Shown piece by piece: positions 28,966 through 42,365 of a DNA stretch of 64,000 bases. Both the position numbers and the translations under genes were made by a program. The DNA is taken from assembly GCA_000004985.1 (NCBI GenBank), contig GG738866.1. The stretch is one strand, 5' to 3'. Source of the DNA: Naegleria gruberi. Taxonomy: Eukaryota. Below the pieces are notes generated by a model. The model had not been told where the DNA came from and did no database searches. It saw only the letters and a program-made list of their open reading frames with translations. Every line of letters begins with the position of its first letter. Position 1 is the first letter of the stretch.

Positions 28966-31599
28966 TTAATTTTTGGTAGGTTTATAAAAGTGGAAGGTAA
29001 AACCACTATCATTATCCTTAATAGGTTTGTCTTCGTTATCAAACTCATGGAATTTCCATCTCTTATTGCCTTGACATTGTGGTGGAGGTTGGAAGGAAGA
29101 CATTACAAACATGCCAGCACCGGGCACAGGTGGTTGTTGACTTTCATTTTGGAATGCAAGAGCCTTCTTTGATTTGGCCTTAATAGCCTTTTGTTTTGGT
29201 TCAGATGGTGGATCCATAGGAGCAAATTGTTGTTGGTTTTGAGCAGCAAGTGCAATAGAATCCATAGAATGTGCTTTTCTGACACCACCTATCACACCAC
29301 CAATTTTGACAGATTTGGCCTTTGGTCTTGTTTCTCTTGGTGTTGTTGATTCTTCTACAATAAAATCAGCAGAATGAGTTGAATCAGTAGGTGTTGGAAC
29401 TTCTAGTGTCTCTGATGTTTCAGTATCATTATTATTCTCTGTTGTGTTATTCAATTCTGACTCAGCACTCTTCTCTAGAGCAAGTAAATCGTTACTGGAC
29501 TCTGAATGGTTCTTTTTACGTCCCTTCTTGCTAAAGTTGTTATTCTTTCTCTTTTTAGATGTTTCTTTATCCATTTCTTTTTCAAGTAATCCTGTAAGAT
29601 TATCACTACTTCTGGTAGGAGGCATTTTCTTGGACTTGGCTCTCTTCAAATTTCTCATAGAACTTGTGCTCATTGATCTTTTCATTTCACTTGAGGATGG
29701 CTTTTCAGGCTGGACAATTTGTTCACCAAATGAAGTAAGAGAAGACTCAGTTGGAATGTGTAAATTATTAGCATTGATGGATGAAAGACAGTTCATTGAT
29801 TGAGATCTACTCAAAGGGCTGAATGGTATTGAGCTATATGGATATCCACTTGTCTGACTAGAAGATGATGTATTACTAGAGACACTTGTAGTTGAGGTAG
29901 ATCTTTTCATACCTGAAACAGCATTTTGTTGTTGAGTGATGGTATTAGCCAAATTTGCAAGATTTCCATATGCATTCGCAAGTAATTTTTGATTCTGTTG
30001 AAGAGTATTCATCATGGTGTTATACAATTCAACAGAGCTCAAATTATTGGAATTCAAAGCATAATTTTCGTAAGCATCATCAAGATCAATAGTATTCTTA
30101 TTGGCAGAATCTTCAGACTCTTCAGTATTATTTTGGACCTCTGTTTGTTCTGTTGGTTGTTTTGGTAAATTAGATTTTGGTCTTTGTGGATTTCTATTGT
30201 TAGAAGTTTGTGGATACAAGGATGAAATTGGGATAATATTGCTGGAAGACGCTGAGGATATTGAAGGCATAGTTTTGCTTCTTGTGATACTGGAGTTTGA
30301 AGAGGTTGTGCTGGTTGGAGTGGACACTGCTGGTTTAGTAGTTTGTTGTTGTTGCTGTTGTTGTTGTTGAATAAGCTCTTGAACAACTTGGAGTGACTTC
30401 ATTTGAGAACCAATCATAGATGCCACAACTTGTTGCTGTTGAGCTAATTGTCTAGAGAGTGCTAAATTTTGTTGTGCCAAGTTTTGTTGTTGAAGATGGA
30501 ATGCAGATGGAGGAGATGAAGAAACACTTGGTGGTGTAGAAGGAAGAAGATTACTAGCTGATGCCCTCAAAATTGCTTGTTGTAATTCTTCCAAGTTTGT
30601 GGAAGGGGGTATTGTACCATTGATTAGCATTTCTTCAATGAGTGACATGTTGTATTGGTTCATATATTGTTGTTGTGTATTATTTAACATTTGTTGAGGG
30701 CCAAGTTGAGGTACTAGTTGTGGCTTACTCCTAGGTATAGAATTAGGAATGTTTAAACCACCAGTAGACTGCAGTAATTGTTGTTGTTGGAGTTTTTGTA
30801 GTTGTTGTTGGAATAGGAGAGTGTTACTGAGATTGGCAATAATATCTTGATCTTCAAGAAGAGGTTCTACATCTTCTCTTGAATTTGTCAGCAAATCTTC
30901 ATTGAGGAACATTTGTTCATTAGTTGTAGGAGGTGTCATGTTTAGTAATTGTTGTTGAAATAAATTATGTTGTAGTGAATTCATCATATTAGGATTCAAT
31001 AGTGGATTATAGGTATTCATTAAAGGTGTAGTGGTGTGTTGCCCATAATGTGAGTGATTATTATTTGGTTGAATACTGTGTTGGGACATCATGTAGGTTA
31101 GTCCAGGTGGTGTAAGAGATAGATGAGACGAACTGGAAATGTAGGAATCGCTCGTTGTTTGCCCTCCATCATCGTCATCAACAAAGGATGAAAATTGAAA
31201 AGCCTCTGATGAAGAAGAAGTTGGAGACGTTGAACTGGCATTATTCAACATGAAAATAGGATTAGAACTACTTTGAAAGAGAGGTTGATTATTGGTAGGT
31301 GTTGATGCTGTATCTTCAAAACCAGTAGTAAAATCATCTTGAAATTCATCATCTAAAAGTGAATTATGTTGTTGTTGTTGCTGTATACTCTGTCCATTAT
31401 TGAGTAAAATTTCGGAAGAAGGTATTAGCAAACTATTATTTCTACTATTAGTACTCGATGATGTTGTTGTTGTTTTAAAGAGGCTTGAATTTATCACTCC
31501 GCCACTATTACTTGAATCAAAAAGAAAAGATGGTGTCGTTGATGATGCACTATTATTATTGACTGGTATCGTTCTTGTTCGCATTGTTGTGTTGTACAT
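28966..31599 (-). CDS. Large (877-aa) Q/N/S/T-rich low-complexity protein of unknown function.
   Basis: Long intron-less ORF containing poly-Q (a CAA/CAG tract at about 30340..30370, reading QQQQQQQQ) and S/T/N runs. C-terminus ...KRWKFHEFDNEDKPIKDNDSGFTFHFYKPTKN. Confidence 0.4.
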   Translation of the reverse strand: MYNTTMRTRTIPVNNNSASSTTPSFLFDSSNSGGVINSSLFKTTTTSSSTNSRNNSLLIPSSEILLNNGQSIQQQQQHNSLLDDEFQDDFTTGFEDTASTPTNNQPLFQSSSNPIFMLNNASSTSPTSSSSEAFQFSSFVDDDDGGQTTSDSYISSSSHLSLTPPGLTYMMSQHSIQPNNNHSHYGQHTTTPLMNTYNPLLNPNMMNSLQHNLFQQQLLNMTPPTTNEQMFLNEDLLTNSREDVEPLLEDQDIIANLSNTLLFQQQLQKLQQQQLLQSTGGLNIPNSIPRSKPQLVPQLGPQQMLNNTQQQYMNQYNMSLIEEMLINGTIPPSTNLEELQQAILRASASNLLPSTPPSVSSSPPSAFHLQQQNLAQQNLALSRQLAQQQQVVASMIGSQMKSLQVVQELIQQQQQQQQQTTKPAVSTPTSTTSSNSSITRSKTMPSISSASSSNIIPISSLYPQTSNNRNPQRPKSNLPKQPTEQTEVQNNTEESEDSANKNTIDLDDAYENYALNSNNLSSVELYNTMMNTLQQNQKLLANAYGNLANLANTITQQQNAVSGMKRSTSTTSVSSNTSSSSQTSGYPYSSIPFSPLSRSQSMNCLSSINANNLHIPTESSLTSFGEQIVQPEKPSSSEMKRSMSTSSMRNLKRAKSKKMPPTRSSDNLTGLLEKEMDKETSKKRKNNNFSKKGRKKNHSESSNDLLALEKSAESELNNTTENNNDTETSETLEVPTPTDSTHSADFIVEESTTPRETRPKAKSVKIGGVIGGVRKAHSMDSIALAAQNQQQFAPMDPPSEPKQKAIKAKSKKALAFQNESQQPPVPGAGMFVMSSFQPPPQCQGNKRWKFHEFDNEDKPIKDNDSGFTFHFYKPTKN

Positions 31600-32184
31600 A
31601 TTCGAAGAAGAAGAAGAAATAGAGGAGATGTGGAGAGGTTATAGTGAGTTATTGTTGATGTTGTAACCTTGCTCTCAGAAGAAAAGATTCAGAGTGTTTG
31701 TTGGTGGTTTTCGTTCACTGTCAAAGAAAGCCGTTTTTTTTTGCCTTGCTCCTTTTGTCTGAGATTCGAAAACTGATGGCACAAATGATGAACGACAATG
31801 AACAGGAAAAGGTAACCCTGTCTAATGGTTTGACTTTTCAAATAATGTTCAACACAATGCATTCGTTAATGGCCATCTGATTGGTTGCCATGATGTTAGG
31901 ATTATCAAGAATTTCAAGTTAAGGTTGTTAAATTTCATTACTGCAGCAGCAGAGGTTAAAATTCGTTATTGATTCAACTCAGATTATTGAGCGACTCGAA
32001 AAATTTCTCTATCTGTACATTAATCTCAGGTTTAAATAAGGAATGAATATTACCACATTTCAAAATAAGATGTTAAAAGGTCCATTTCCAATAAATCCGA
32101 TGACATTACTGGATTTTTGAACAAATACTGGAACGTATCTAATATATATTGTTTAATGTTTATTCATTCAATAACATGCAAGAA

Positions 32185-34801: not shown

Positions 34802-36745
34802 ATGCGTCGAAATAAAACCTCACAAGATAAGCAAGATGTAGTGGAGGAGGTGAATGAGGTTGAGAAGGTTGATTCTCAACAAAAAGAAGAGATAATGCAA
34901 GCACCACCACCTGAAAGTAAAGAACAAATTGAGAAGAACCTAGTTGTGGATCATGCTAGAAAGCCTAAAACAGTTGAGGATTTCTTTTTGGAACGTCCAT
35001 CATTATTAACATTTGAAGAGTCGGATTCTGAAGACGAATTGGATTTAAAGAAGAAGAAGAAAGTTAGCTTTGATGGATTTATGAATTTGACAATAATTTT
35101 TCTTGTTGCAGCAGTGATAAGAACAATGATTGATAATTTATCAGAGAGAGGTTTATTATTTCCGAATCTGGGTTTATTACATTGTATAAGTGATGAGTTA
35201 ATTCAAAGATCTTGTGTTGATGTATTAATATTTACATTGACTTATAATTCTGTAATTTATTTGAATAGTTCTTTGAGAATGTATTTATTGCCACTTATTG
35301 GAAAAGATGGATCAATTGTCGACAAGTTAATAACAATTATTGAGACATTGGTGTTTTATGGATCTACATTTTCATATATTGGAATATTTGTAGTGGCAAT
35401 TTTCATCAAGAGACTGTCATTGATGGTGAATATTGTAATCGTTTTCACAATGATGATCTATGGAATGAAAGCATACAGTTATTATGATTATATTAGAAGA
35501 AGAAAGTTTACTTTGAAGAAGGAAGGAAAGAGTGTAAATAGCGACGATGAAAGAAATATTGAAAAACCAACATCTCCAATTTCTCTCTTCAGGGAGTATT
35601 GCTACTTTTTATTTGCTCCAACATTGTGCTTTTTTAGGAGTTATCCAATGACCAATACCATTCGAATTTCTTTCATTCTAAAACAGGTTTTCAGTATTCT
35701 TATCTGTGGACTTGTAGGATGGTTTATATTTATTCAGTATTTGGAACCACTTTTTAGAAATAGTGCCAGTGTTGATCTTACTCCTCCAAGTATTGAGCAT
35801 CTGATCACATTGTTTGAGGAAAACAAAAACAGCTCAACACAGAACATTATTGATGCATTTAGAGGATCTAAATCTGATCAACACTTTCTTAATAATTTAG
35901 GAAAATTTGGATACTTGCTCCTCAAAACCAGTGTGCCTTGGTTTGTTTTGTGGTTGATTCTCAGTTTTGCATTCTTCCACTGCTATCTCAATATTCTTGC
36001 TGAATTATGTTGTTGGGGTGATAGATATTTTTTCAATGATTGGTGGAATGCTCCAGATTTTCAAACATTCTGGAAGAATTGGAATAGACCTGTACATCAA
36101 TGGCTCCTTCGTCACGTTTATCAACCTTCTCTCGGTTCTAATATTTCCAAGCCAATTTCTGTATTCTTTACCTTCTTGACATCAGCAATTCTTCATGAAA
36201 TCTGTATGGCCATGGTGTTCAGAAGCTTGAAACTATACTTTTTCTATGCAATGATTGTACAAGCTCCATTTGTGTTACTTGCTCAATATTTTGGTCAATA
36301 CAAGCCAAGAAAAGAGAAAAAGGATAAACAAAAGGAGTCAGGAATGAAGAAAGTTCCATCACTTTTGCAGCTTCCAGCAAAAGCTGAAGAAAAATTCAAA
36401 GAACTTGAAAGAAGAATATTGGAATTTAAATCTGATGTTGAAAAGAAATTGAAATCAAGAAAAAGCAAGAACTTTTTAAATAGACTTGGTAATACTTCAA
36501 TGTGGATATCACTATTCCTTGGTCAACCATTACTATGCTTTGCTTACTTCCAAGTTTTTTATAGCTCTGAAAGTATGATTTGTGATGTAAGAAATAACAA
36601 GTATGGATATGGATTGGTATTTGATAGATGGTCTGATTCCTTCTCCAACGGAACCATTTCAAATATTGGTAATAGACTCATTGATGGAGAATGGAAAATA
36701 ATATTGGATCAATTATTTTCCATTGTTACAGCAGCTTTGTTGTAA
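34802..36745 (+). CDS. MBOAT-family acyl-CoA:diacylglycerol/sterol O-acyltransferase (DGAT1/ACAT-like).
   Basis: Acidic N-terminus, multiple TM helices, CCWGDRYFFNDWWNAPDFQTFWKNWNRPVHQWLLRHVYQP...LTSAILHE (FYxDWWN ... HEY-type MBOAT signature). C-terminal K/E-rich extension. Confidence 0.75.
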   Translation: MRRNKTSQDKQDVVEEVNEVEKVDSQQKEEIMQAPPPESKEQIEKNLVVDHARKPKTVEDFFLERPSLLTFEESDSEDELDLKKKKKVSFDGFMNLTIIFLVAAVIRTMIDNLSERGLLFPNLGLLHCISDELIQRSCVDVLIFTLTYNSVIYLNSSLRMYLLPLIGKDGSIVDKLITIIETLVFYGSTFSYIGIFVVAIFIKRLSLMVNIVIVFTMMIYGMKAYSYYDYIRRRKFTLKKEGKSVNSDDERNIEKPTSPISLFREYCYFLFAPTLCFFRSYPMTNTIRISFILKQVFSILICGLVGWFIFIQYLEPLFRNSASVDLTPPSIEHLITLFEENKNSSTQNIIDAFRGSKSDQHFLNNLGKFGYLLLKTSVPWFVLWLILSFAFFHCYLNILAELCCWGDRYFFNDWWNAPDFQTFWKNWNRPVHQWLLRHVYQPSLGSNISKPISVFFTFLTSAILHEICMAMVFRSLKLYFFYAMIVQAPFVLLAQYFGQYKPRKEKKDKQKESGMKKVPSLLQLPAKAEEKFKELERRILEFKSDVEKKLKSRKSKNFLNRLGNTSMWISLFLGQPLLCFAYFQVFYSSESMICDVRNNKYGYGLVFDRWSDSFSNGTISNIGNRLIDGEWKIILDQLFSIVTAALL

Positions 36746-36779: not shown

Positions 36780-39036
36780 CTAGTTCAACTCTTGACTTTC
36801 TTCATCTGTTGGAGTCTCATCACCACCATACGAAGGAGTAGAGGCAGAAACTCCATCACTTTCTGATAAATAGGTTGCACTCTTTGATTTAAATGAAATG
36901 TGACCCTTAATTCCTGTACTCACTGGTGGGAATTCATTACTTCTTTCTCTCAAACTGTATGGCAACAATTCGTACAGTTTCTGATCTCCATCGATACCTT
37001 TGAGAGTGAATTCTCCCAATGGTCTAACAACTGGAGGCATAATTTCACCACCAACAATTAAATCATGCAAATTATGCTTGATGAGCTCATAGATATTATC
37101 GTGAATAATAATTTGACCTCCGTTGGCAGCACTTGCAACTCTGGCACTCAAATTTACAGAATTACCAAAGTAATCCAATTTACCAACGTTATCCTTATGT
37201 ACATCAGGATTACAGATTGCTGTTCCCATTCTAACACGCACTCCTCTAAAGATAATGTTACCAAACTTGTCAACTTTGAATGCAGTTTCTTTGAAATTCA
37301 TTACATTAGTTGGCCAATCCAATTTCATCAATTCACTTTGAGATCTCAACATCCATCTAATAGCATTCAAATAATCCTTAAAGGCAACCATGAAACTGTC
37401 ACCTTGAGTTTTGATTTCATATCCTTGATATTCTTCCAATAATTTTCTCAGCAAGACATTGTGCAAATTGAGTGAAATTTTCATATCTTCTGTTGCTTCA
37501 CTCCATAACTTGGTGGATTCTTGAATATCTGTGAAAATAATTGGGAATTCTCCATCTTTTGCAGTTGGAGCATAGGCAATAACCTTATTTCTCTTTCTAA
37601 TGTGAGATCTCCATCCACATGCAATGCCAATTATAATCAATACACCAATTATTAAGGCAACTCCCAATACTGACACGAGAACTGCAATAATGACAACAGT
37701 GTTATCAACTTTACCAGTACAAATGAATACTGTTTCCTTCACTTGATCATAACAAAAGTTAACTCGCTGGTGAATATAGCCGAGTGCAGAGAAATCACCA
37801 AATACTGATGCAGTCTTACTAGATTTAACGTCATTACTCAATGAGATATAAGCTTGCTCAACAAATTCATTAGTATATGCTCCAATACCATAACTGGCAT
37901 TTGGAATGATTTGGAATTGGGTGGAAATGTCAATAGACTGTTTAGCTATTGTGGAATTGACAATACCCATTCCATCAACTTCTGCTGGCCATATGAGAGA
38001 ATTTACTTCACGCATCATCCACTGTTGATGGTATGTCTGATCTGGAAGAACGTTAATACACTTATCTTCATTATCACGACAGAATATCCATCCCATAATG
38101 ATAGACTTTATGAGACGAATAACAATATTTCTATTCTTTGTTGGATTAGCATTAAACCAGTCCATATTCATCATGAGACCATCTTCATACATTTGAGTCC
38201 CTTCTTCATTGAATCCCATCACATTAAAATCATTGAGTGTATACAGATCTGTCTTACTGTCTGTTTTTAACTTTTCCAGTAATTGAGCAAGTTCATTGTA
38301 AACCATAGCCATAATCACATCGTATCTGTCTGGTTGTGTGATTAGAGGAAGTGCAGAGTATGATTGTTGTCTCATGCTGAGCTCCGATTCTGGATTGATA
38401 TTGTACTTTCTCATGGTTGCTTTCAATGAATATCTATTCCATCATGTTATTTTGATCACTCAAGAATTCCTTGATCAGAATACTTACTCATAACCAGACC
38501 AATAACCGATATTCTTATCTTTGAATTGTGGAAATTTAGTAATCCCAGACTTTTTAGTGCTCACCATAACAGTTGCAGATCGTTTAAAGTGTTGAAACAC
38601 GTCCACAAGATTGACACCATCAATGGCTCTTGCTACTAACATTCTAGAGAAGAGAATAACTGCAAACTGTGCAGAACCTGATTTAATGTTCTCTATTGGA
38701 TCAACACCAGCTCCTCCTTTATATAATTGTGATAATTAAAATAATGTTAAGGAACATTGATTAGTATGCAAGTTAGTACGACCCATATAAAATTAAAAAC
38801 ATACCTTGCTTAATAATAACATTGAGACATTCATTCTCAAAGTATCCCATCTCCTTTGCAGCTATAAAACCTGCATACTGTGCTTGAAAAACCCATCCCA
38901 ACTGTATGGCCACTGTATCCGTCCCGTTGGGGCAAGAAATTGCTGTAGTTCTTGTAATGAGATGTGCCAAACACAACAAGAGAAGTGAGAGTGTCAGCAA
39001 GAAGTGTCTGTTATGTGTTGAGTAGATGATTTTCAT
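36780..39036 (-). CDS. Receptor-type class III nucleotidyl (adenylate/guanylate) cyclase: signal peptide, SsuA/NMT1-like solute-binding ectodomain, TM helix, cyclase domain. Exons 38805..39036, 38488..38716, 36780..38433 (introns 88 and 54 nt).
   Basis: Ectodomain: MKIIYSTHNRHFLLTLSLLLLCLA...VAIQLGWVFQAQYAGFIAAKEMGYFENECLNVIIKQ|GGAGVDPIENIKSGSAQFAVI... TM helix: VIIAVLVSVLGVALIIGVLIIIGIACGW. Cyclase domain: FTDIQESTKLW..GYEIKTQGDSFMVAF...RVRMGTAICNP...GKLDYFGNSVNLSARVASAANGGQI. Confidence 0.7.
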
Positions 39037-41240: not shown

Positions 41241-42365
41241 TTATTGAATAATCATGTTAGGAGAAAATGTCATGGCACTGCTAATGAGTTGTAAACGAGG
41301 TGCATTTTCAGCGTTTCCGATATTGTTTCCACTAATATTAAGTGCTTTTAGTTTATCAAGAATGGTGCTGGAAGTGAGTTTGTATGCAACTTCTTGAGTA
41401 ATTGAGCACATGCTCAAATCAAGAACTTGTAGGGATGGAAATGGATTTGATACTCGGGACACTTGAATGAAACTTTCGAATGATTCGCCAATAGAGTTAC
41501 AAGAAAGACATAACATTCTTAGTTCTGTAATGTGTTTGCACTTTGCTAATGGCTCAATATTTGAAATGTTATTCGATCTCAGATTGAGAATCCTCAAATT
41601 TACAAGTTGCGAATTTTCTGCAAACTCTTTTAGCCCATTATCATTTAACTTACAATTACTTAAATCTAAATGGGTTAGATTTTTAAGGTTTTTGCACAAC
41701 TCTGCAACATTTCCAATAGGATTGTCATTGATAGATAAATCAGTTAACTGACTCAATTTGTTTGAAATATTGACAATTGCTTCTCCTCCCATAAAGGCTG
41801 AATTTTTTGAAATGTCCAATTTGGTTAAATGAACCATGGTGCTACATAGGTATTTCACTCCAATATTTCCAACATTATTATTTCGAATAGATAATGATCT
41901 AAGTGATTCAGCAATATCTTGATTCACTGAAATTAATCTCATAGCTACATCATCAATAGAACACGAGTTCAGATTCAACTCTTCTAATTGTTTAAACTTG
42001 GATGTTGTCCCCAAAAAACTTGCTCCAGTTCTATGAATCATGTTATTTTGTAGGTTCAAGCTTTTTAAATTTGGAAAACCATCACAATTACATAAGGCTT
42101 CTATTACTTCCTTCGTTAAATTATTTTCCGATAGATTTAGGCTCGTTAATTTAAGGAGATGATTTTTGCTACTCTTCAACATGAGGGACAACCTCTGGAT
42201 ACCAATTCTCTTCTTAAAAGATAAATCCAGTGAGAGAGGTACGCTTAGAGAAATCCTAAAAAATGTTTTGGAAACTCGCATCACTCTGATCCGATCAATA
42301 GAATCAATAAATTCCAATATGCAATAAATCATATCATCTGGAATGTATGTGGTTAGTTGAGCCAT
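41241..42365 (-). CDS. F-box-like / RNI-type leucine-rich-repeat protein.
   Basis: N-terminal IPDDMIYCILEFIDSIDRIRVMRVSKTFFRI (F-box-like), followed by about 10 RNI-like LRRs (LxxLxLSxNxIGxxG...). Confidence 0.6.
   Translation of the reverse strand: MAQLTTYIPDDMIYCILEFIDSIDRIRVMRVSKTFFRISLSVPLSLDLSFKKRIGIQRLSLMLKSSKNHLLKLTSLNLSENNLTKEVIEALCNCDGFPNLKSLNLQNNMIHRTGASFLGTTSKFKQLEELNLNSCSIDDVAMRLISVNQDIAESLRSLSIRNNNVGNIGVKYLCSTMVHLTKLDISKNSAFMGGEAIVNISNKLSQLTDLSINDNPIGNVAELCKNLKNLTHLDLSNCKLNDNGLKEFAENSQLVNLRILNLRSNNISNIEPLAKCKHITELRMLCLSCNSIGESFESFIQVSRVSNPFPSLQVLDLSMCSITQEVAYKLTSSTILDKLKALNISGNNIGNAENAPRLQLISSAMTFSPNMIIQ

Follow-up and report, generated by a model that had tools for sequence, protein, structure and literature searches.

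A Naegleria gruberi gene predicted to encode a receptor-type adenylate cyclase with an NMT1/THI5-like ectodomain

Gene structure

The window analysed here is a stretch of 64,000 nucleotides of Naegleria gruberi DNA (contig GG738866.1 of assembly GCA_000004985.1), and the subject of this report is a single gene on its minus strand, the coding sequence of which, including the stop codon, runs from 36780 to 39036. The encoded protein combines a signal-like N-terminus, an ectodomain of the NMT1/THI5 type, a two-cysteine stalk, one transmembrane (TM) helix and a class III nucleotidyl cyclase domain, and on the strength of its sequence we think it probable that it is a receptor-type adenylate cyclase of type I that spans the membrane once, its N-terminus lying outside. 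An earlier note, made from the DNA letters without database searches, had placed three spliced exons here and its coordinates matched ours exactly. The spliced coding sequence is 2115 nucleotides long and specifies 704 amino acids; all features of the gene given below lie on the minus strand. Exon 1 (38805..39036, 232 nucleotides) starts at the first ATG of the upstream open reading frame (ORF; start codon 39036-39034), is colinear with homologues and encodes the signal peptide together with the first strand and helix of the binding domain, including the QLGWVFQAQYAGF motif. Intron 1 (38717..38804, 88 nucleotides, GTATGT...TACTAAC...AAG, phase 1) is followed by exon 2 (38488..38716, 229 nucleotides), which encodes the central part of the NMT1-domain N-lobe, and intron 2 (38434..38487, 54 nucleotides, GTAAGT...AATAG, phase 2) contains an in-frame TAA and must therefore be spliced out. 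Exon 3 (36780..38433, 1654 nucleotides including the TAG stop at 36780-36782) carries the rest of the ectodomain, the stalk, the TM helix, the cyclase domain and the C-terminal tail.

Relatives of the protein were collected by an exhaustive profile search and are referred to by our own numbers. The best database match, P0001, is an N. gruberi protein of 633 amino acids with 51% identity and the same NMT1 and cyclase domains; it is encoded on a different scaffold and is thus a paralogue, and tblastn found no second copy of the gene within the 64-kb window. The public model of P0001 begins at a methionine aligned with M63, has neither the leader nor the first binding-domain strand, and is probably a truncated model from which part of a 5′ exon is missing. 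Both splice junctions align without gaps with P0001, with the chytrid homologue P0003 and with intron-less bacterial binding proteins, the first at K-Q-G|G-A-G and the second at GYWSGYE|YSLKAT, which corresponds to GYWVGNDYSLLAT in P0001 and to GNWGFGNEFELFA in the bacterial proteins. With GT-AG introns, a domain match that runs across the junctions (see below) and colinear homologues, the three-exon model can be taken as confirmed at the level of sequence. It could be argued that exons 1 and 2 form a separate small gene and that the true cyclase protein begins inside exon 3, as an exact look-up of the 704-residue model and of five alternative start variants matched no deposited protein and the public P0001 model also starts internally. 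A product of exon 3 only, however, would begin in mid-fold and without a signal peptide, and the single NMT1 match covering all three exons, the colinearity of the junctions not only with the bacterial proteins but also with the full-length homologues P0012, P0027 and P0063, the stop codon inside intron 2 and the canonical ends of both introns make such an artefact highly improbable. To judge from the accession numbering of the minus-strand genes, a public model of the window gene may exist.

Identity of the ectodomain

The ectodomain (37779..38937, residues 34-372, a span that takes in both introns) matches the Pfam family NMT1 (PF09084) with an E value of 1.1e-21, and its score of 78.1 bits exceeds the cut-off of 20.5. 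Residues 52-257 are aligned with positions 2-198 of the 216 in the profile, and this match crosses both splice junctions. The motif GWVFQAQYAGFIAAKEMGYFENECL, on which the earlier note had relied, is present at residues 47-71. Structure was assessed with AlphaFold2 models of the window exon-3 product and of P0003 (33% identical), the latter representing the full ectodomain. The P0003 model has the two-lobed fold of a type II periplasmic binding protein (PBP) like ThiY and THI5, and its closest solved structures (fold-match figures in brackets) were ThiY with the thiamin-pyrimidine precursor FAMP (29.4), 4NMY (28.3) and THI5 (24.7), ahead of NrtA (about 22), SsuA (20-21) and TauA (19.8). The structure 4NMY is that of a C. 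difficile binding protein with thiamin bound (PMC10586155). The sequence identity of ThiY, 4NMY and THI5 to P0003 is 13-19%, and a profile of the family matched 4NMY at 1.8e-26 and ThiY (3IX1) at 2.8e-15.

An ectodomain of the NMT1/THI5/SsuA type had been proposed, and from these results the NMT1/THI5 part of that proposal holds whereas membership of the SsuA family does not: the TIGR01728 profile gave 14.3 bits against a cut-off of 163.5 (E 0.018) and SsuA folds rank below ThiY and 4NMY. Similarly, the Pfam search that had been suggested recovered NMT1 and Guanylate_cyc, and NMT1_2 stayed below threshold (13.1 bits against a cut-off of 24.7). These scores, the position of SsuA, NrtA and TauA clearly below ThiY and 4NMY among the fold matches, and the gene contexts of bacterial relatives, none of the ten of which includes sulfonate or nitrate genes (see below), make it very unlikely that the ectodomain is an SsuA-, TauA- or NrtA-like sensor of sulfonate, nitrate or bicarbonate. 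The possibility that the domain would turn out to be an ANF-type (type I) flytrap, which the earlier note had raised against itself, was also rejected, as there was no ANF_receptor or Peripla_BP Pfam match at E ≤ 1 and none of the 50-60 best fold matches listed was a type I flytrap, so that the NMT1 identity stands.

Signal peptide, stalk and membrane helix

The predicted signal peptide (38938..39036, about residues 1-33, MKIIYSTHNRHFLLTLSLLLLCLAHLITRTTAI) has its hydrophobic stretch at residues 12-30 and a putative cleavage site at its end, and comparable hydrophobic leaders are found in the homologues P0012, P0047 and P0003. There are six cysteines at conserved positions in the ectodomain and stalk (Cys35, Cys70, Cys272, Cys279, Cys381 and Cys392) and three N-X-S/T glycosylation sequons (N37, N313 and N332), which together are consistent with an extracellular location of the ectodomain. 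The last two of these cysteines lie in the stalk, a juxtamembrane beta-hairpin (37707..37763, residues 378-396, VNFCYDQVKETVFICTGKV) that appears as two strands in both AlphaFold2 models; the pair is invariant in all eight aligned eukaryotic ectodomains and is not found in the bacterial binding proteins. A single TM helix (37614..37700, about residues 399-427, hydropathy peak 3.2) follows, with the positively charged cluster RSHIRKRNK after it on the predicted cytosolic side. In the model of the exon-3 product (predicted local distance difference test score, pLDDT, 87.6) residues 398-440 form one unbroken helix, i.e. the TM helix runs on as a short cytosolic helix, and the first cyclase strand begins at about residue 450, giving a linker of about 22 residues in which this model shows no HAMP domain, kinase-homology domain or coiled-coil. 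Thus the signal-like N-terminus and the one membrane segment that had been claimed were both found. The C-terminal tail (36783..36920, residues 659-704) is disordered and rich in Ser, Thr, Asp and Glu (pLDDT <50, model residues 505-550).

Catalytic domain

The claim of a class III nucleotidyl cyclase domain was borne out (36945..37571, residues 442-650), residues 450-609 matching Guanylate_cyc (PF00211) with an E value of 1e-18 and 68 bits against a cut-off of 21.9. The closest solved relatives by sequence (phmmer) are the Trypanosoma brucei cyclases GRESAG4.3 (1fx4, 1.5e-23) and GRESAG4.1 (6.3e-21), the family profile matches the T. brucei receptor cyclases at 1e-29, and in a Foldseek comparison with the exon-3 model 1fx4 and 1fx2 came first and second (target-normalised TM-scores 0.79 and 0.78, full-length alignment). 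At the place of the delta-subdomain insert of trypanosomatid catalytic domains, between the LDW and GxRVR motifs, the insert is 23 residues here and 40 in GRESAG4.3 by alignment, although the flanking motifs LDW and GxRVRxG are common to both. All seven catalytic residues are present: by their positions in class III cyclases, D456 and D499 are the metal-binding aspartates, K495 and D574 the adenine-selecting Lys/Asp pair, N581 and R585 the transition-state pair and K632 a phosphate-binding lysine (codons of D456, K495 and D499 at 37527-37529, 37410-37412 and 37398-37400, respectively). The same residues occupy these positions in 28 of 30 active-looking relatives, and the two metal-binding aspartates and the transition-state pair are also aligned with those of T. 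brucei GRESAG4. A Glu/Cys substrate pair specifies GTP and a Lys/Asp pair ATP; K495 and D574 thus predict an adenylate cyclase, which should make cyclic AMP (cAMP) rather than cyclic GMP (cGMP). Synthesis of one or the other had been proposed, and inspection of the substrate pair supports the first; as there is no Glu/Cys pair, the reading as a guanylate cyclase was rejected. In class III cyclases the active sites arise where two catalytic domains meet in a dimer, and as the full catalytic set is present on one domain the enzyme should work as a homodimer.

Eukaryotic relatives and origin of the ectodomain

The layout of NMT1 domain, TM helix and cyclase is also found in P0001, in P0012 (from a metagenome), in P0027 from the diplonemid Lacrimia lanifica, in P0054/P0160 and in P0063, which places it in a diplonemid and in environmental protists as well as in N. 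gruberi. P0063 (632 amino acids, Logan) is a pseudo-cyclase with N, Y, D, A, R, H and G at the seven catalytic positions. The stalked ectodomain is not confined to cyclases. In P0056 (674 amino acids, on a Logan contig of 2184 bp) it precedes a 7tm_3 domain (PF00003, E 1e-34), which makes this protein a class-C-type G protein-coupled receptor (GPCR) with an NMT1-type flytrap in place of the usual ANF-type one, and in P0047 it is attached to a bare membrane anchor. It is also present in two chytrid fungi, as P0003 (Borealophlyctis nickersoniae, partial, 417 amino acids) and P0174. Beyond the cysteine hairpin, at about residues 385-417, P0003 has cysteine-rich CxxC...G.Y repeats and no TM helix, which hints at yet another architecture for the stalked ectodomain.

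In a neighbour-joining tree, which carries no support values, the stalked eukaryotic ectodomains form one clade beside a bacterial subfamily, suggesting a single acquisition, probably from bacteria, followed by domain shuffling. The cyclase has likewise been combined with various partners, and the window gene is one outcome of a combinatorial expansion of this cyclase. CHASE2, PH, CH and myosin-TH1/RGS modules are found on further relatives of the cyclase. Two members of the same cyclase clade, P0082 (Willaertia magna KAL9656567.1, 649 amino acids) and P0113 (702 amino acids), have a PstS-like domain (PBP_like_2) and one TM helix; they represent a second class of bacterial binding protein joined to this clade and are possibly phosphate-sensing cyclases.

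Bacterial relatives and candidate ligands

The nearest non-eukaryotic relatives of the ectodomain are ATP-binding cassette (ABC) binding lipoproteins of the NitT/TauT type from Actinobacteria and Chloroflexi (they include P0161-P0173, P0190 and P0203), which are 36-39% identical to it over about 87% of its length. They have in common with it a C-terminal extension and the motifs QLxWxxQAQFAG, AMxYNEYAQ, GWIFCRDNxxxC and HQxWxMNEVNKLIWP. We looked at ten bacterial loci (L001 to L010) and at all ten the binding-protein gene is the last in an ABC operon of the order permease, ATPase, permease, binding protein, and this operon adjoins genes for opening nitrogen-heterocycle rings. From the adjoining genes the loci can be divided into three groups. 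The first (L001, L002, L007, L009 and L010, the last with a partial set) has genes for dihydropyrimidinase (TIGR02033, 560 bits), a CN_hydrolase, an aminotransferase, methylmalonate-semialdehyde dehydrogenase and an F420-dependent LLM oxidoreductase (TIGR03842). The second (L003 and L004) has an AtzD-type ring amidohydrolase of the cyanuric acid/barbiturate type (455 bits) with All genes nearby and, in L003, a PucR regulator. The third (L005, L006 and L008) has subunits of a molybdoenzyme of the xanthine dehydrogenase family. These contexts resemble the pathways, reductive and oxidative, by which pyrimidines are broken down, suggesting that the bacterial subfamily probably binds a pyrimidine- or ureide-type ring, which from gene context is the most likely class of ligand. 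The combination of dihydropyrimidinase, F420-dependent oxidoreductase and ABC importer recurs in the first group, L009 having in addition the F420 biosynthesis genes CofC and CofD, and it may be an undescribed F420-linked module for uptake and catabolism of pyrimidines or ureides.

Although overall identity is only 36-38%, the Naegleria ectodomain keeps 56 (72%) of the 78 alignment columns in which the bacterial subfamily shows 90% conservation or more, a figure that expresses sequence conservation. The kept residues include W48, Q51, Q53, Q119, R123, W150, E154, D192, Y199, N200, E201, H289, W292, E296, N298 and W302. This makes it plausible, as far as an alignment can tell, that the Naegleria ectodomain binds a ligand related to the bacterial class. 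A different small molecule is suggested by the fold comparison, in which the three closest solved structures are ThiY with FAMP, thiamin-bound 4NMY and THI5, a synthase of HMP, and on this basis the protein might be a ligand-regulated cyclase that senses a vitamin, i.e. thiamin or a thiamin-pyrimidine precursor (HMP or FAMP). We think this unlikely, as those structures are only distantly related to the modelled homologue (13-19% identity, see above) whereas the much closer bacterial relatives lie, at ten loci out of ten, in pyrimidine/ureide catabolic operons and not in thiamin operons.

Proposed mechanism

Taking the ectodomain, the stalk and the cyclase together, we favour a reading in which the protein would be an adenylate cyclase that dimerises and is regulated by the ligand that it senses, a compound resembling a pyrimidine or a ureide, and judged from sequence we rate this as rather likely overall, the architecture, the catalytic residue set and the ATP-selecting residues being directly visible and the ligand and the regulation being what we infer from them and from the relatives. 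The ectodomain flytrap would close on the small molecule and the closure would alter how near the two TM helices lie to each other or how they are rotated, i.e. the geometry of the dimer. This change would be relayed through the cysteine-hairpin stalk and the rigid helix made up of the TM and juxtamembrane segments to the catalytic domains, the pairing of which would then be altered, and as active sites exist only in the dimer the output would follow. A dimerisation model of this kind has been put forward for trypanosomal receptor cyclases, which are activated by dimerisation, as well as for the guanylate cyclases of natriuretic-peptide receptors (PMC6027212). The most probable ligands would be nitrogen heterocycles of the pyrimidine or ureide type (uracil, thymine, a dihydropyrimidine, barbiturate or a cyanurate-like compound), because the closest relatives of the ectodomain belong to ring-catabolism operons and its conserved polar and aromatic residues are largely kept. 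The ectodomain would have been acquired once from bacteria and then joined in protists to a cyclase, to a class-C seven-transmembrane (7TM) domain or to no output at all.

It is also conceivable that the ectodomain acts without a ligand, as a module for dimerisation or structure, its fold a relic, with control of the cyclase exerted by the membrane, pH, osmotic stress or cytosolic factors. The closest catalytic relatives are indeed activated through dimerisation by acid, hypotonic or proteolytic stress and have no known ligand (PMC6027212), P0063 keeps the ectodomain having lost its catalytic residues, and P0047 has the ectodomain but no output domain. However, retention of 72% of the conserved bacterial columns at so low an overall identity suggests a conserved functional site, and P0056 has this ectodomain joined to a 7TM domain of class C, a receptor class whose flytraps are ligand sites, so that we consider a purely structural role to be fairly improbable, although less so than thiamin sensing.

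Several points weigh against the ligand-regulated cyclase that we favour, in addition to the tree without support values and the reliance of the column count on alignment. The ligand of the bacterial subfamily is deduced from gene neighbourhood only and the subfamily has no curated family model; parts of the bacterial consensus are changed in the window protein (GFGNE to SGYEY and DM to SA), so that a shift in specificity is possible; the ligand in the nearest solved structures is thiamin or FAMP and not a free pyrimidine base; and trypanosomal receptor cyclases respond to acid or osmotic stress and their natural ligands are unknown (PMC6027212). It should be noted too that everything past the architecture is something that we infer.

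Comparison with known systems

The nearest known system is that of the T. brucei ESAG4/GRESAG4 receptor cyclases (PDB 1FX2 and 1FX4), which like the Naegleria protein have an extracellular N-terminus, one TM helix and one cytosolic class III domain that needs to homodimerise, and which come from another member of the Discoba. Their catalytic domain is the nearest by both sequence and fold and shares the LDW...GLRVR region. The flytraps of the trypanosomal cyclases belong to another class of binding protein than NMT1. A review describes the trypanosomal ectodomain as much larger and as having two flytraps (PMC6027212), unlike the Naegleria ectodomain, in which we find a single NMT1/ThiY-type flytrap with a cysteine hairpin and no other flytrap family at E ≤ 1. 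ThiY, 4NMY and THI5 are soluble transport proteins or an enzyme, and compared with them the Naegleria family has a C-terminal extension of about 80 residues, extra cysteines of the disulfide type, the stalk, a membrane anchor and a cyclase output. Bacterial ABC binding proteins are lipoproteins whose genes adjoin two permease genes and an ATPase gene. The bacterial relatives described above are of this importer type, whereas the window protein is anchored and has no transporter partner, a eukaryote-specific cysteine hairpin and a covalently fused cyclase.

In natriuretic-peptide receptors and other membrane guanylate cyclases, and in class C GPCRs, a dimeric flytrap drives the output through a single membrane-proximal connection much as we propose here, but their flytraps are of type I (ANF_receptor) and the guanylate cyclases contain in addition a kinase-homology module and a coiled-coil, in contrast to the type II NMT1-like flytrap, the linker of about 22 residues and the predicted cAMP product of the Naegleria protein. 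Bacterial sensors such as the histidine kinases P0007 and P0009 and the GGDEF protein P0010 also use an NMT1 domain as an attached extracytoplasmic sensor, but they are only 21-27% identical, fall as outgroups in the tree and have histidine kinase or GGDEF outputs. No bacterial fusion of the window ectodomain subfamily to a class III cyclase was found in the searches made.

Flanking genes

The neighbours of the cyclase gene are unrelated eukaryotic genes, encoding an amino-acid transporter, an MBOAT protein, an RRM protein, an F-box/LRR protein and a P450, and the idea of a functional gene cluster around the cyclase gene was rejected for this reason. The MBOAT O-acyltransferase gene (34802-36745, plus strand, an exact match to the N. 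gruberi protein D2VEI6) is convergent with the cyclase gene, and as only 34 bp separates the two stop codons the 3′ untranslated regions must overlap or be extremely short. On the other side, the gene at 41241-42365 is an exact match to the N. gruberi protein D2VEI9. Further away, an ORF of 877 amino acids without a Pfam domain (28966-31599, minus strand), identical to N. gruberi D2VEI4, lies in the strongest GC skew of the window (+0.32 at 30001-32000).

Implications

The earlier note had remarked that this exact pairing was not known to have been characterised and this was borne out, as no description of an NMT1/THI5-type ectodomain on a class III cyclase was found in the searchable literature and a review of signalling by solute-binding proteins makes no mention of NMT1 or of eukaryotes. 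The N. gruberi genome has been public since 2010, and the domain pair of P0001 is already visible in public Pfam annotation. We put forward, tentatively and as less likely than the receptor reading itself, the full proposal of an adenylate cyclase gated directly by a pyrimidine- or ureide-type metabolite together with a module of bacterial origin (the NMT1 domain with its cysteine hairpin) that has been wired to a cyclase, to a class-C 7TM domain or to a bare anchor in protists and chytrids. Receptor cyclases were described in 2018 as ‘a hallmark of trypanosomatids’ (PMC6027212), and the gene reported here indicates that the trypanosomatid catalytic type is present outside that group. If the proposal is true it would provide a ligand hypothesis for receptor cyclases of the trypanosomatid type, the natural ligands of which were still unknown according to the same review (PMC6027212). 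It would also mean that the coupling of flytraps to 7TM domains and to cyclases arose with a second, unrelated class of flytrap. The small single ectodomain and its bacterial relatives point to a concrete class of ligand and so make ligand control of a eukaryotic adenylate cyclase testable, and the apparent reuse of one bacterial-derived sensor on a cyclase, on a class-C 7TM domain and on anchor-only proteins bears on how eukaryotic receptors came to be assembled.

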